Below are positions 105 through 63,432 of a stretch of 64,000 nt of DNA, in pieces (the stretch's first letter is position 1; each line of letters begins with the position of its first letter). Source of the DNA: Nannocystis bainbridge (GTDB lineage Bacteria; Myxococcota_A; Polyangia; Nannocystales; Nannocystaceae); the NCBI RefSeq assembly GCF_028368995.1, contig NZ_JAQNDL010000001.1:2528001-2592000 (forward strand). The letters are read 5' to 3'. Made by a program: the position numbers and the translations under genes. The notes under the pieces were generated by a model. It ran no database searches and had not been told where the DNA came from. It saw nothing but the letters and a program-made list of their open reading frames with translations.

Positions 105-1475
105 GTGCCGCTCCGCCGCTCCGCCCTCGCTGTCGCGCTCGCCTTCGGCCTGTCTCTCGGGACAGCTTGCAAGGGCCGCCCGTCCGCCGGGCCCGATCCC
201 GGCGCCGCGCAGGTCGCCATGGGCTCGTGGCCGGAGTGGCTCGCGCTGACCCCGCTGGTCGACGCCGCCCGCTCGCACGCCGGCCCCACCACCGTCACCG
301 CGCTCGAGAAGGCCAGCAAGCTGCTGCGCGACGGCAAGGCCCGCAGCGCCGACGACGTGCTCGCCGCCCTGGCCGACAGCGAGGGCCGCCACTGGATCAC
401 CGTCGCCCGCGCCGACCTGGCCGCGCTCTACTTCACCGTGTGCATCCGCGGCGTCGCCTGGCGGCTCGTCGACCTCGACATCAAGACCCCGCCGACGCGC
501 AAGAGCGACTACAGCGAGGACACCAAGCTCGGCCCCGGCGACATCGCGGTCGAGGCGATGCTGACCAACCTCGACGCGGCGCTCACGGCCAAGGAGCCGA
601 TCCTCCAGACCCAGGCGCGGATCGCCCGCGCGCGCGCGACCGCCTACGTGGCGCGCTGCCCGGCCTCGAAGGAGGTCGCCGAGATGGCCCAGGGCATCCT
701 CAAGGGCGACCTCGCGGCGCTCGCCGCCGAGAACCACCTCACCCCCGACCTCGCGTTCCTGTGGGCCGGCGTGCAGATGGGCGAGTACTCCGGCGCCGCC
801 GCCAAGCCGTTCCTGCTGCTCGCTCGCGAGGGCGGCTACGACGAGCCGACGATCGCCACCATGCTGGCCGTCATCGCCCTCGAGCAGCGCGAGTTCGCGG
901 CCGCCGACAAGCACGCCGCCGAGGCCGAGGCCAACTACAAGAAGCTCGGCGACGTCGACCAGCAGGCCCAGGCGCTGTTCCTCCGCGGCGAGGTCGCGCG
1001 CAACAAGGGCGACCTCAAGGCCGCGCGCGGCTTCTACGAGGCCGCGCGCAAGCTCGACGGCGCCCACCTGCCGTCGCTGCTCGGGCTCACGCGCATGACC
1101 CTCGCCGCCGACGGCCAGAGCGCGGCGATCCGCCAGCTCCAGGCCGCCTTCCCGTCGATCCTCCTCGAGGGCCCGCTCGTCACCGACAAGCTCGAGCGCG
1201 CGCTCGACAACCTCGAGGCCTACGTCACCCTGCCGGCCGAGAACGACCTCATCACCGTGTGCCGCGACGCCCTCCTCGTCGACGTCGAGCTCGAGAAGGA
1301 CCTCATGCGCCGCGGCCTGCGCTACTTCTTCGCCGCGACCATGGACGCCCGCCTGGCCGAGTACGACCACGCCCGCTCGCACGCGGTGCTCGCCCGCGAC
1401 GAGTTCGAGGGCGCCAAGATCCCGCCGCCGATCGACATCAACGCCTTCATCGAGCGGCTCGACCGCGTGCACTGA
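105..1475 (+). CDS. TPR-repeat lipoprotein
   Basis: GC3-rich codons; signal peptide with lipobox LGTA-C; C-terminal helical TPR-like repeats (QAQALFLRGEVARNKGDLKAARGFYEAA). Confidence 0.75.
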   Translation: MPLRRSALAVALAFGLSLGTACKGRPSAGPDPGAAQVAMGSWPEWLALTPLVDAARSHAGPTTVTALEKASKLLRDGKARSADDVLAALADSEGRHWITVARADLAALYFTVCIRGVAWRLVDLDIKTPPTRKSDYSEDTKLGPGDIAVEAMLTNLDAALTAKEPILQTQARIARARATAYVARCPASKEVAEMAQGILKGDLAALAAENHLTPDLAFLWAGVQMGEYSGAAAKPFLLLAREGGYDEPTIATMLAVIALEQREFAAADKHAAEAEANYKKLGDVDQQAQALFLRGEVARNKGDLKAARGFYEAARKLDGAHLPSLLGLTRMTLAADGQSAAIRQLQAAFPSILLEGPLVTDKLERALDNLEAYVTLPAENDLITVCRDALLVDVELEKDLMRRGLRYFFAATMDARLAEYDHARSHAVLARDEFEGAKIPPPIDINAFIERLDRVH

Positions 1476-1514
1476 CGGGAATGCGCCGCCGGGATCGTGT
1501 GTAACCCTCGGCAT

Positions 1515-61700: not shown

Positions 61701-63432
61701 TGCCGCCGCTGACGACCGCCAGCGTGCGCGAGCCGGCGCGCGCGGTGAGCCCCCCCGAGTCGCGGTCCCAGGTGATGCGCGGCTTCAGCTCCGCGAACTC
61801 GTCGGACGGGTAGCGGCCCGACAGCATGTCGAGCACCCCCTCGAATGTCTCTCGGGACAGGTCAGCGAACGGCGCCGCCCCGCGGACCTCGGCGTGCAGC
61901 GCCTCGACCGTGGTCGCGTCCATCGCCACGCTGGCGACCACCTGCTGGGCCAGCACGTCGAGCGGGCTGCGCGGGTAGGCGATCGGCTCGACCTCGCCGG
62001 CGACGATCCGCGGGGCCGCGGCCGCGCACGCCAGCAGGTCGCCGCGGAACTTCGGCACCAGCACCCCGCGGGACACCGCCCCGACCTGATGGCCCGCGCG
62101 ACCGATCCGCTGGATCCCCGCCGACACCGACGGCGGCGACTCGATCTGGATCACCAGCTCCACCGCCCCCACGTCGATCCCCAGCTCGAGCGACGAAGTC
62201 GCCACGATCGCCGGCAGCTCGCCCGCCTTGAGCCGCGCCTCGAGGATCTGCCGGCGGTCGCGCGCCACCGCCCCGTGGTGCGCCAGCGCGATCTCCTCCT
62301 TCGCGTGGTCGTTGATGGCCGCCGCCAGCCGCTCGGCCAGGCGGCGGTTGTTACAAAAGATCATCGTCGAGCGGTGGGCCCGGATCCGCTCGACCAGGCG
62401 CGGCACGATCGACGGCCAGATCGACTTCCCCGCGCCTGCGAGCCCCCCGCCCGCCGGCCTGCGCTTGCCCGGCCGCGCCGCCGCGGCGCGGCCGCGCTTG
62501 CGTGGTGATGTCTCTTCCGACATGCCCTCTCGGACATGTCCTTCGGGAGCTGTCTCCTTGAGCATGCCCTTCGGAGCATGTCCCTTCGACCCTGTCTCCC
62601 CCGCCGCGGCCCCATGTCCCTGCTCGCCGGCCGGCCCTGCTGCGCCCGCCTCGGCCTCGACCGGCACCTCGATCGTCAGCGCCCACGCCTTCTTGCCCGG
62701 CGGCGCCGCGATCGTCACCGGCCGCGGCTGCCACTCGCCGGCGGCGTCGACTGTCCCGCCGCCCAGCAGGCGCGCCACCTCCTCGAGCGGCCGCTGCGTC
62801 GCCGACAGCCCGATGCGCTGCAGCGGCGGCGCGGCCGGATCGTGGCGGCGGCGCAGCGCATCGAGCCGCTCGAGCGTCAGGAACAGGTGGGCCCCGCGCT
62901 TGGTCGCCGCGACCGCGTGGATCTCGTCGACGATCACCGCCTCGACCGCGTGCAGCCCGTCGCGCGCGTTCGAGGTCAGCAGCAGGTACAGCGACTCCGG
63001 CGTGGTGATGTAGATGTCGGGCGGGGTTCGCCGCAGCTGCCCGCGCTCGGCCTGGGTCGTGTCGCCCGAGCGCACCCCGATCGTCGGCCGATGGAACGCC
63101 GCGCCCGTCGCTGCTGCCACCTCGGCGATGCCCACCAGCGGCCGCTGCAAATTGCGCTCGACGTCGGCCGCCAGCGCCTTGAGCGGCGACACGTAAATCA
63201 CGCGACAGCGCCGCTCCGGCGGCGGCTCGGGCGCGAACATCAGGCGATCGATGGCCGCCAGGAACGCCGCCAGCGTCTTGCCCGAGCCGGTCGGCGCCAG
63301 CAGCAGCGTCGACCGCCCCGCCGCGATCTCCGGCCACGCCGCCGCCTGCGCCGAAGTGGGCGCCCCGAACGCGTCCGCGAACCACCGCCGCGTCGGCGGA
63401 TGAAACAGCGAGAGCGGGTCCTTGGGGCTCAC
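58756..63432 (-). CDS. lhr: Lhr-like ATP-dependent helicase
   Basis: APTGSGKT, SPLKAL, TTPESL, DEIH, LSAT, AHHG, SSLELGID, QRIGRAGH, GTIPDRG, TDPANPYG. Confidence 0.93.
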   Translation of the reverse strand: MSPKDPLSLFHPPTRRWFADAFGAPTSAQAAAWPEIAAGRSTLLLAPTGSGKTLAAFLAAIDRLMFAPEPPPERRCRVIYVSPLKALAADVERNLQRPLVGIAEVAAATGAAFHRPTIGVRSGDTTQAERGQLRRTPPDIYITTPESLYLLLTSNARDGLHAVEAVIVDEIHAVAATKRGAHLFLTLERLDALRRRHDPAAPPLQRIGLSATQRPLEEVARLLGGGTVDAAGEWQPRPVTIAAPPGKKAWALTIEVPVEAEAGAAGPAGEQGHGAAAGETGSKGHAPKGMLKETAPEGHVREGMSEETSPRKRGRAAAARPGKRRPAGGGLAGAGKSIWPSIVPRLVERIRAHRSTMIFCNNRRLAERLAAAINDHAKEEIALAHHGAVARDRRQILEARLKAGELPAIVATSSLELGIDVGAVELVIQIESPPSVSAGIQRIGRAGHQVGAVSRGVLVPKFRGDLLACAAAAPRIVAGEVEPIAYPRSPLDVLAQQVVASVAMDATTVEALHAEVRGAAPFADLSRETFEGVLDMLSGRYPSDEFAELKPRITWDRDSGGLTARAGSRTLAVVSGGTIPDRGLYGVFLRGEPGATARRVGELDEEMVFESRVGDVFLLGASSWRIEEITPDRVIVSPAPGQPGKMPFWRGDAVGRPAEFGRAIGRLTRELAAATPAAARRKLTREHFLDDRATEDLLDYVQAQTAATGEVPSDEAIVVERWRDDVGDWRVCVLSPFGARVHAPWATAALARMREASGEQVEGLWADDGLVFRFPDAEAAPDMSALLLAPEVIEDLVVQQLGQTAVFAARFRENAARALLLPRRFPGRRAPLWAQRKRAADLLSVAGRFGSFPIVLETFRECLREVFDLPALRELLRQVQSRELRVVMVDSERPSPFAGSLLFGYVGNFMYEGDAPLAERRAQALAIDTGQLRALLGESSLRELLDAEAIAEVEAGLQRLTRPATSADGLHDLLIALGELSRAEVVDRCAPPESAGAWLGELVAARRVFVAEKLADGTGRFAAVEDAARLEGALGVALPATVPKALRTPVADPLGDLVRRFARTHGPFTAAAVASRLGLGTGLIEHVLKNMAAEGRAIAGEFTPGGTGAEWCDPEVLRQIKRRSLARLRKAVEPAPQAAYARFLTRWQHLQPRLRGREALLQVVGQLQGTPLLASALETEVLPARLVDYRVGDLDGLCAAGEVGWLGLAPVGSGDGRIALYLADQLDMLRRPGTAVEGELPAKIRAVLSERGALFFSDLAPLVGGFEPDLLQALWDMVWAGELSNDTLVALRKLVFGSASDRRRGAPPPSPFRARRLGPPGSEGRWSLIWPPRHVLSDMSEGSAGVSALETRRRHALAQSLLERHGIVTREAVQAEEIAGGFSAVYEVLKAMEEAGKVRRGYFVDGLGAAQFAVPGAEDRLRALRDPPAEPEAIVLASTDPANPYGAALAWPEHPGARVARAAGTSVVLVDGLLAAHVGRDARSVVLFTPAEEPERSRVAEAAARALTGLLSPSRRTLLIGQVDGTPAQESPWLPLFERAGFAATSQGLFARFAGEQL
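62509..62592. repeat. Six-unit 14-bp array in frame within lhr
   Basis: tgtctcttccgaca/tgccctctcggaca/tgtccttcgggagc/tgtctccttgagca/tgcccttcggagca/tgtcccttcgaccc (84 bp). Confidence 0.85.

Follow-up and report, generated by a model that had tools for sequence, protein, structure and literature searches.

The stretch analysed here, called the window throughout, is 64 kb of the Nannocystis bainbridge genome (G000:C1:2528001-2592000; 11,048,555 bases in 5 contigs, 71.5% GC), with a GC content of 0.70-0.75. Pfam searches of its 51 proteins revealed ordinary chromosomal genes, including prfC, glnS, rpsT, lgt, Lhr and carotenoid genes, and Rfam 15 at the gathering score gave no match on either strand of the window. 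Scattered through this stretch is the 14-bp palindrome TGTC-N6-GACA, to which an earlier note on the same DNA had drawn attention. All 35 positions given there proved to be exact matches, and one further copy, at 8362, had been overlooked. These 36 copies compare with a mean of 0.75 (sd 0.96, maximum 4) in 100 dinucleotide-preserving shuffles, in agreement with the estimate in that note of less than one expected copy per 64 kb. The copies are given below, either as solitary dyads or as units in 14-bp register; no strand is assigned to them, and the strands in brackets are those of the genes.

151..164: solitary dyad within the called coding sequence (CDS) 105-1475(+)
6093..6120: two in-register units, the perfect one at 6107, within the CDS 3930-7769(+) of a VIT/VWA protein
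8362..8375: solitary dyad within the CDS 7766-8722(+) of a TPR protein; the copy missing from the first list
8740..9246: six solitary dyads (8740, 8794, 9034, 9071, 9169, 9233) spread over the 790 intergenic bp that separate lgt from the TPR gene, most of them CC-TGTCC...GGACA-G in type
14059..14086: two units at the junction of two co-directional genes of ~500 aa (stop 14042), in place in six genomes
15531..15600: five-unit array in 14-bp register, beginning at the stop codon of 14058-15533(+), upstream of prfC
17762..17775: dyad starting 2 nt past the prfC stop codon (17759)
17811..17824: second dyad of the prfC 3' intergenic region
19057..19084: two units within the Ser/Thr kinase CDS 17933-20668(+), the perfect unit kept in 6/6 genomes
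19357..19398: three units within the same kinase CDS 17933-20668(+), the perfect unit kept in 5/6 genomes
20277..20290: solitary dyad within the kinase CDS, kept in 6/6 genomes including a rare ACA codon
20892..20905: solitary dyad within the CDS 20741-21208(+), kept in 6/6 genomes though the spacer alters an amino acid
24198..24239: three-unit array 3' of the AhpC gene, directly downstream of a hairpin and T-run terminator (24167-24189)
26005..26102: seven-unit array spanning the stop codon of 24518-26044(+), with a predicted RNA fold of -46.3 kcal/mol
31205..31218: dyad in the convergent intergenic region 31183(+)/31373(-)
31337..31364: two units in the convergent intergenic region 31183(+)/31373(-)
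37671..37684: dyad 3' of a P450 gene (stop 37506)
47429..47463: two dyads (47429, 47450) beginning 9 nt past the cyclophilin stop codon (47420)
49995..50022: two units within the PA14-domain CDS 49237-50166(-)
52181..52255: two dyads (52181, 52242) where genes diverge, in the intergenic region 51890(-)/52353(+), unlike the usual placement at 3' ends
52699..52712: solitary dyad within the CDS 52353-53222(+)
55286..55369: two units and one dyad 3' of the phytoene/squalene synthase gene 55439-56431(-)
56448..56475: two units at the 3' end of the CDS 56428-57954(-)
58643..58742: two dyads (58643, 58729) in the intergenic region where a Uma2 gene (+) and the Lhr helicase gene (-) converge
61846..61859: solitary dyad within the Lhr CDS
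62509..62564: four units within the Lhr CDS, where a variable linker joins the DEAD and Helicase_C domains

The called gene start at 14058 is probably too early. Six genomes kept the array at 15531..15600 in place; CATG was its best conserved portion, and its 4-nt centres were free. The six dyads upstream of lgt lie in a gene-free stretch (8723-9510) at irregular spacings of 54-240 bp; no open reading frame (ORF) was called there and no Rfam match was obtained, and the stretch could contain an unannotated small gene or RNA.

Genome-wide, TGTC-N6-GACA occurred 3,663 times, or one perfect copy per ~3 kb on average, whereas the same arms with any other spacer of 0-19 bp gave 29-175 copies. The spacer had been described in the earlier note as always 6 bp and usually YYNNRR, and both statements carried over to the whole genome, with a pyrimidine at spacer position 1 in 3,339/3,663 copies and at position 2 in 2,846, and a purine at position 5 in 2,728 and at position 6 in 3,242. 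Perfect copies were enriched ~37-fold and one-mismatch copies ~3-fold; sets built on 5- and 7-bp spacers held 78 and 120 perfect copies. An unbiased scan of 4-mer gapped palindromes (k 0-16) was topped by ATGT-N8-ACAT (2,000 copies, 48-fold), with ACAT-N12-ATGT, TGTC-N6-GACA (31-fold) and CATG-N10-CATG (3,736) among the other leaders. All of these overlap and belong to one family, the only one at the top of the scan. Among GC-containing 8-mers, GACATGTC, ACATGTCC and GGACATGT were the most over-represented, at ~30-fold, and CATG alone reached just 1.4 times its mononucleotide expectation. CRP/MrpC-type sites have a consensus with N8 spacing; this identity was rejected, as TGTC-N8-GACA had the lowest count of all spacers (29).

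The sequence logo extended to (G)ACATGTCC-yNNr-GGACATGT(C). The centre was free, and more than 4 bp away from the dyad the information content was ~0. The form TGYCC-N4-GGRCA was found in 2,828 copies, compared with 93 for N3 and 54 for N5. Related spacings were also frequent (GACATGTC, 2,237; TGTC-N10-TGTC, 3,246; GACA-N14-TGTC, 1,305; TGTC-N20-GACA, 984), which indicates that units abut head to tail. Accordingly, distances between copies with at most one mismatch peaked at 14 (1,548), 28 (820), 42 (558), 56 (318), 70 (146) and 84 bp (74), and no 10.5-bp phasing was seen in them. In-register arrays of one to eight units numbered 2,106, 817, 282, 96, 78, 40, 14 and 2. Three CATG words at 14-bp steps occurred in 1,670 cases, 1,545 of them intergenic, and gave an array unit of GGRCATGYCC followed by four nearly free, A/T-enriched bases. 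However, the basic unit is the dyad TGYCC-N4-GGRCA, with TGTC-N6-GACA as its stringent core, and not this decamer. Perfect decamers without a partner half-site amounted to 182/1,771 (1,753/1,771 in a shifted-register control), and 1,067 of the 2,828 dyads (38%) had no CATG on either side. Since the decamer is rarely alone and many dyads are CATG-free, the unit proposed in the earlier note was right, and the 10-bp palindrome is the product of two abutting units. Half of the copies had C/G rather than A/T at the flanking position and hence lacked ATGT.

A longer MITE-like element was considered and rejected: 729 of 1,594 intergenic neighbourhoods matched another, but the alignments reflected the periodicity of one array against another. 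An eight-unit array at G000:C3:1085845-1085956 consisted of near-identical units (GTCATGYCCCTGAG) and resembled a recent slippage expansion; the centres differed in most arrays. The array decamer GGACATGTCC (RRRCATGYYY) is identical to the animal p53 half-site consensus, which we took as coincidence.

Placement relative to genes was examined with gene calls from our own codon log-odds model, trained on long ORFs with high GC at third codon positions (8,191 genes, 84% coding). Perfect copies were intergenic in 2,307 cases (1.32/kb) and coding in 1,312 (0.14/kb; 36% of copies), with 44 straddling a boundary. Thus copies do lie both inside and between genes, as first reported, and the ~9-fold higher intergenic density is a disparity that the earlier note lacked. 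Density was 3.12/kb in convergent regions, 1.2-1.3/kb in co-directional regions and 0.43/kb in divergent ones; this lowest intergenic value supports the view that the element is not an ordinary promoter operator. Copies also avoided the region just upstream of start codons. A region counted as occupied if it contained a CATG-N10-CATG pair or a copy with no more than one mismatch. Occupancy reached 872/1,328 convergent regions (66%), and 480/639 of those 100-300 nt long. Co-directional regions were occupied in 1,338/3,770 cases (35%), with 16% below 100 nt and ~68% above 500 nt, and divergent regions in 405/1,486 (27%), including 43/569 of those shorter than 200 nt. A shifted-spacer control gave 6-9%.

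Copies set in sharply 2 nt past the stop codon and thinned with distance, and 1,818/8,188 genes had a perfect copy within 200 nt downstream. Among genes with a 3' intergenic region, the element followed 2,724/6,160 (44%), and canonical terminators with a hairpin and T-run followed 259/6,160 (4%). A terminator scan of 8001-28000 likewise found 5, against 3.2 in shuffles, of which one (24167-24189) was strong. Copy density was even along the contigs and on both replichores. Nothing, this evenness included, pointed to chromosome organisation as such, the function that had been suggested for the element; what stood out was its position at transcription-unit 3' ends. Density varied with base composition, from 0.7 per 10 kb below a GC content of 0.68 to 4.85 above 0.74. 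Stretches of 35-44 kb devoid of perfect copies (for example C2:741506-785869, C2:2100542-2143127 and C1:1175234-1215442) had GC contents of 0.67-0.70, against 0.715 for the genome, and may represent islands of recent acquisition or genes of great length.

Purifying selection acts on the sequence itself, including through synonymous codon choice. When synonymous codons were shuffled within genes, 92.9 +/- 9.3 copies were obtained against 1,287 real ones (14-fold); the controls gave 18.5 against 43 real copies for k=5 and 84.2 against 105 for k=7. Within genes, T0 and A13 were coupled across 13 bp, T0 being present in 1,312/2,496 cases with A13 versus 9-15% with G13 or C13. The three reading frames held 665, 546 and 101 coding copies, a bias attributable to codon tolerance. 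The surroundings of coding copies were rich in Pro (1.42-fold), Ser (1.28-fold) and Ala (1.21-fold) and poor in Ile, Phe, Met, Asn and Tyr, and the copies were not concentrated at gene 3' ends. An origin in protein motifs was rejected, as the residues outside the fixed bases corresponded to background. Repeat-rich proteins, among them those with xVPxDx repeats, held at most ~100-150 of the 1,312 coding copies, with up to 15 per protein. Five large, low-complexity proteins, rich in Pro, Ala, Ser, Glu and Asp, carried 9-15 dyads each in the same frame, read as xVPxDx and variably spaced by 21-168 nt (G000:C2:2066054-2070511, C3:712627-717846, C5:658301-661411, C2:1216680-1218890 and C3:585193-587040).

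Selection was also evident between species. We compared a 361-kb syntenic stretch with that of a second genome of the genus (G001), which was ~88% identical, with genes mostly at 80-93%. Of 50 coding copies, 4 were dropped for want of a gap-free alignment, and 39 of the remaining 46 were intact, compared with 208/506 (41%) in in-frame mock sets (p 1e-9) and 64% under a conservative one-lineage null (p 0.0017). The core was 96-100% identical and the flanks ~85%. Among intergenic copies, 37/103 could be aligned; 17/37 were intact versus 12% in mock sets (p 2e-7), with p 0.09 under the one-lineage null. Occupancy itself was stable. Across 175 orthologous intergenic regions, 57 were occupied in both species, 12 and 7 in a single one and 99 in neither, an odds ratio of 67. 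Alignment of six genomes showed the four coding copies of 19071-20892 intact in 5-6/6, with changing spacers, and the arrays in place, with CATG best kept. The Lhr copy at 61846 was absent at the aligned codons of five other genera and arises through Pro to Ser and Ala to Thr replacements together with the rare codons CGA and ACA. The Lhr segment (58756-63432) was 55-58% identical to counterparts in three genera without the expansion and 41-44% to those found in the genera g2 and g4 described below, the reverse of prfC, which suggests, from sequence identity, paralogy or replacement of Lhr in g2 and g4.

We surveyed 73 genomes of the family, from 17 genera, counting TGTC-N6-GACA against a reversed control pattern.

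Genus of the window (g1): 11/11 genomes, 240-3,957 copies, control 6-48
Genus g2: 5/5 genomes, 503-705 copies, control 10-109
Genus g4: 7/7 genomes, 283-1,335 copies, control 9-50
14 other genera: 50 genomes, 16-186 copies, control 9-73

The expansion was present in all 23 genomes of three genera, and the 50 genomes of 14 genera were at about background. An artefact of this assembly, a doubt voiced in the earlier note, is contradicted by all 11 genomes of the genus and by individual sites that align across six genomes. A 20-base extended form occurred in 11/11 genomes of the genus (2-393 copies), 15 times in one g2 genome and 5 times in one g4 genome, and was found in none of 18 other relatives searched. 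CATGTC-N6-GACATG reached at most 3 per genome in 400 further genomes of the phylum, versus 944 here. Among viral contigs, 102 stretches had one match each and none had several. A search for RNA sequencing runs returned none from an isolate; those labelled RNA were metagenome runs in contig form, by their flags most probably DNA, with 6-12% of the searched words, and the best of them came from soil. The identity of prfC to that of the window was 75-81% in g2 and g4 and 71% in a non-expanded genus, which agrees with a close relationship among the three genera. This genome has a dyad just past the prfC stop codon, where one g2 genome has a one-mismatch dyad and one g4 genome four units of GGACAGGTCCCTTC. 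A 400-kb sample of one g2 genome showed the dyad at 4.4-fold and TGTA-N2-TACA at 22-fold; the codon model called just 42% of this sample, of 61% GC, as coding. In that sample (G011:C24:1000001-1400000), TGTA-N2-TACA occurred 46 times against 2 expected, and TGCA-N2-TGCA 79 times against 6.9. Since this g2 genome has such dominant palindromes of its own, the iterated palindrome may differ from one related genus to the next. Arrays at gene ends may belong mostly to the window's genus and to some g4 genomes; the dyad itself is older. Two other genes of the window, a short TIR-domain ORF (21793-22089) and one for a Uma2-family putative endonuclease (58023-58601), are not related to the element.

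The symmetry of the element was examined in 1,297 perfect 3' copies oriented by their upstream gene. Flanks and spacers were symmetric, nearly all mirror tests giving p >0.03, and CTTCGG and CCGAAG occurred 41 and 28 times. No U tract was apparent: TTTT lay within 16 nt downstream in 40/1,297 copies, and the mirrored counts were 26-31. Spacer pairs showed no excess of Watson-Crick combinations (1,209 observed against 1,223 expected, and 2,165 against 2,090). Within the arms, G1 and C12 were nearly invariant, and T2 and A11 could vary to any base with the other positions fixed. Coding variants at positions 0, 1, 12 and 13 showed no excess over the codon-shuffle null (ratios 0.74-0.96), and coding variants of G.U and A.C type were similarly in excess (178 versus 159). 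Taken together, these data place the constraint mainly on a sequence that is read symmetrically with its halves a fixed distance apart, and leave at most a weak RNA-pairing component for the 3' copies.

Searches of a library of PMC and bioRxiv papers, supplements not covered, turned up no description of a TGTC-N6-GACA element, consistent with its having been called undescribed. Among the papers listed for the 8-10-mers, most dealt with p53 binding sites or unrelated subjects, and none with a genomic repeat. By its 3'-end placement and its 14-bp arrays, the element has more in common with REP/BIME, TRIT and DUS-pair terminators than with parS, NBS or matS. In E. coli, REP sequences serve as protein-binding sites in DNA and, as RNA hairpins, shape the 3' ends of mRNAs; REP/REPIN copies have a conserved flanking tetranucleotide, GTAG. 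The REP/BIME repeats of Enterobacteriaceae and Pseudomonas, which include REPINs with RAYT transposases, resemble our element as short palindromes numbering hundreds to thousands, mostly located after genes or between convergent ones and often clustered. Here, however, there is no RAYT gene, the centre is free, only ~10-14 bp are defined, the 14-bp register is strict, 36% of perfect copies are genic and selected, and positions are stable between species. Whole-length likeness of copies and a flanking tetranucleotide were absent, and mobility by presence or absence was not apparent (19/175 regions occupied in a single species). Uptake words (DUS, and the USS of Pasteurellaceae) exceed expectation throughout their genomes and occur in genes at sites that tolerate them, and a single asymmetric 9-12-mer is functional. 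They share with our element this over-representation, the tolerated genic sites and a second use as 3' hairpins; unlike them, a single half is rare here, and the dyad with its fixed 4-nt centre is the unit.

Published accounts, as far as the available portions of the sources go, supply further comparisons. They list REP as an unclassified 3'-terminus-associated element, and name DUS-pair terminators and Correia elements among the lineage-specific 3'-terminus elements; inverted DUS pairs of Neisseria act as non-canonical terminators. The Mycobacterium TRIT ('Tuberculosis Rho-independent terminator') is palindromic, bidirectional, genus-restricted and located at gene termini, with 147 copies per genome; its authors inferred extra machinery and suggested a factor that binds double-stranded RNA, and a 2026 atlas suggests ribonuclease (RNase) III processing. 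Our element is likewise palindromic, conserved in sequence, bidirectional, tight to stop codons and restricted to a lineage, in a GC-rich, terminator-poor host. It differs in its 3,663 perfect copies and bears no sequence resemblance to TRIT, a longer single hairpin centred near -8 of the stop, for which these portions describe neither arrays nor selected intragenic copies. As measured against canonical intrinsic terminators, it offers a GC-rich hairpin near the stop and lacks the sense-strand U tract. The cyanobacterial HIP1 (GCGATCGC) is a contiguous 8-mer tied to orphan methyltransferases and recently linked to transformation. Like our element, it is a hyper-abundant palindrome in coding and non-coding DNA, over-represented against proper nulls and conserved beyond neutral expectation, and its function is debated. 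Ours, in contrast, is bipartite, biased to gene ends and array-forming, and neither that bias nor arrays are reported for HIP1 in the portions available. The published consensus of PadR/LmrR/LadR operators, ATGT-N8-ACAT, equals the single most enriched gapped palindrome of this genome. Nevertheless, half of the copies lack ATGT, no PadR protein was found, and thousands of gene-end sites do not make a regulon.

We tentatively favour a symmetric dimeric factor that reads the dyad, most likely on DNA, with a role at transcription-unit boundaries. A reader of this kind is in keeping with the fixed spacing, the strand symmetry and the absence of covariation, and to this extent the proposal in the earlier note of a site for a dimeric protein held, the dyad being real, genome-wide and strongly selected. 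We infer the protein dimer, DNA rather than RNA as its target, and an effect on transcription ending or insulation. A putative sequence-specific factor of the clade would bind the 14-bp dyad symmetrically. Selection keeps the dyad at its genome-wide density, and copies accumulate where they are least harmful and presumably active, immediately past stop codons at unit ends. Replication slippage would stretch dyads into head-to-tail arrays with one dimer site per 14 bp, in which neighbouring half-sites would fuse into GGRCATGYCC. Occupied dyads and arrays might then form bidirectional unit boundaries, either as a roadblock or insulator on DNA or aided by transcribed stem-loops, and the copies in permissive parts of genes would be further sites of the same factor. 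A bolder form of this proposal seems rather unlikely: an abundant symmetric factor would polymerise on arrays after most genes and replace canonical intrinsic terminators, and intragenic copies would let translated sense transcription pass and stop antisense or untranslated transcription. If true, it would give bacteria an equivalent of protein-roadblock terminators, a novelty for them on the scale of a whole genome.

Several observations weigh against the dimeric factor. No reader protein emerged from the PadR search or from the genes with upstream copies. PadR (PF03551) was an obvious lead, as the extended motif is its consensus, but the family had no match in this genome, whereas the control search found it in 14/14 genomes. 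A perfect copy lay within 150 nt upstream of 274 genes, with two or more copies at 37. An autoregulated reader was rejected among the 20 of these 37 that were searched (19 of at most 373 aa and one 438-aa gene with three copies), none of which encodes a DNA-binding Pfam domain; the 17 others and the 237 single-copy genes lay outside this search. The coding and intergenic figures come from a crude gene caller of our own and carry error at gene starts. In a 400-kb sample of one g4 genome, where the dyad was the top gapped palindrome (25 copies against 1.8 expected), 19/25 copies lay in called genes and none in a convergent region, so the gene-end role may be specific to the window's genus. The array at 24198-24239 is just beyond a canonical terminator and may therefore be untranscribed there, or redundant. 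Furthermore, placement alone fits an RNA 3' hairpin equally well. In this alternative, a close competitor though on the unlikely side, stem-loops of dyads and arrays would terminate transcription without a U tract, block 3' exonucleases or be substrates of an RNase specific for double strands, as has been proposed for TRIT and Correia elements, and the conserved stem and tetraloop size would reflect an RNA-binding factor or common descent. TRIT would be its published precedent. The copies are placed at transcript 3' ends in a genome nearly without canonical terminators, and at the same prfC position the non-expanded genus has an unrelated, generic GC hairpin. Predicted RNA folds were strong, from -11 to -46 kcal/mol (-17.6 for the prfC copy, -26.3 and -46.3 for arrays; z -3.2 to -6.1). 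At pair 2:11, compensated doubles exceeded expectation 2.3-3.3-fold (C:G, 181 versus ~80; A:T, 43 versus ~13), and uncompensated doubles were at 1.4-1.7 times expectation. Watson-Crick combinations of in-register array pairs were 7-13% above expectation, compared with -7% to +7% in mis-registered controls, a signal that homogeneous arrays made by duplication would yield as well. G.U exceeded A.C on the sense strand of 3' copies at pairs 2:11 (171:97) and 3:10 (79:47), two of eleven stem pairs; summed over eight pairs in 1,742 oriented copies with at most one mismatch, the counts were 950 and 810. On the other hand, non-wobble mismatches at pair 2:11 (336/1,742) outnumbered G.U, and the gene-distal half-site was more degenerate for non-wobble changes too. 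Folding alone needs no rule by which the loop is almost never 3 or 5 nt, and flanks, loops and tails were symmetric to transcription. Finally, the genic copies are selected without a sense wobble preference or concentration at gene 3' ends, and 575 coding dyads have 5-bp arms alone.

A self signal for DNA uptake, recombination or repair, of the DUS/USS or HIP1 kind, kept by drive or density selection and merely tolerated at gene ends and in disordered segments, appears improbable. It would agree with thousands of copies spread evenly over both replichores, with coding copies built by synonymous or conservative changes in Pro/Ser/Ala-rich, poorly conserved segments, with the 4-6-fold depletion in low-GC 10-kb windows, perhaps recently acquired DNA, and with the dialect-like palindromes of related genera; the transformation link of HIP1 and the terminator use of DUS pairs, in the portions of those reports available, point the same way. 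However, known uptake words are single and asymmetric, whereas the half-word is rare here, and tolerance alone predicts neither the 66-75% convergent occupancy, the onset at +2 nor arrays of up to 8 units. More improbable still is a selfish REP- or MITE-like repeat that spread by transposition and now decays without host function. Such a repeat would be short, high-copy, mostly extragenic and often clustered, as observed, and some arrays have identical neighbouring units indicative of recent slippage. But the Y1/RAYT transposase (PF01797) had no match in this 90%-complete genome (the same search detected it in 6/14 control genomes), conservation ended ~4 bp outside the dyad with flank similarity due to array periodicity, and occupancy is stable between species while the core is held by purifying selection and its neighbours drift. 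We rejected RAYT/REP mobility on the grounds of the missing transposase and the stable intergenic positions; moreover, 14-bp insertions cannot explain in-frame coding copies built by point changes. A methyltransferase-linked or very-short-patch repair bias that turns near-sites into sites is hardly credible, even though the motif contains the palindromes CATG and ACATGT, CATG is best conserved in arrays, perfect copies so far exceed one-mismatch copies in enrichment, and HIP1 is associated with orphan methyltransferases in the available accounts. Of the methyltransferase- or repair-driven process offered in the earlier note, the repair part has lost its most obvious agent, since the Vsr endonuclease (PF03852) was absent from this genome and from 22/23 genomes of the three expanded genera, and Vsr-driven word bias was rejected on this basis. 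Patch repair acts on 4-6-bp words, which leaves a bipartite dyad with a free centre, its gene-end placement and its arrays unexplained; the many CATG-free dyads and the slight excess of CATG alone argue against it as well.

Iterated palindromes that are specific to a lineage and stand at gene ends are a known kind of element, and ours is one of them. What is new is its architecture, in which a dyad of two parts around a free 4-nt centre forms 14-bp arrays in register, has no transposase and is strongly selected within genes. Recognisable intrinsic terminators are scarce in GC-rich bacteria such as myxobacteria and actinobacteria, and the element bears on how transcription units end in them. 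The constraint is strong enough to bend synonymous codon choice at more than 1,000 places, which makes it a second clear case, besides HIP1 and uptake sequences, of word selection inside coding DNA. Because related genera lack the expansion, the origin of the element can be dated. The dyad provides a bait sequence for the factor and a marker for annotating operon ends in these 11-13-Mb natural-product producers, and it may serve as a portable terminator or insulator in their engineering.

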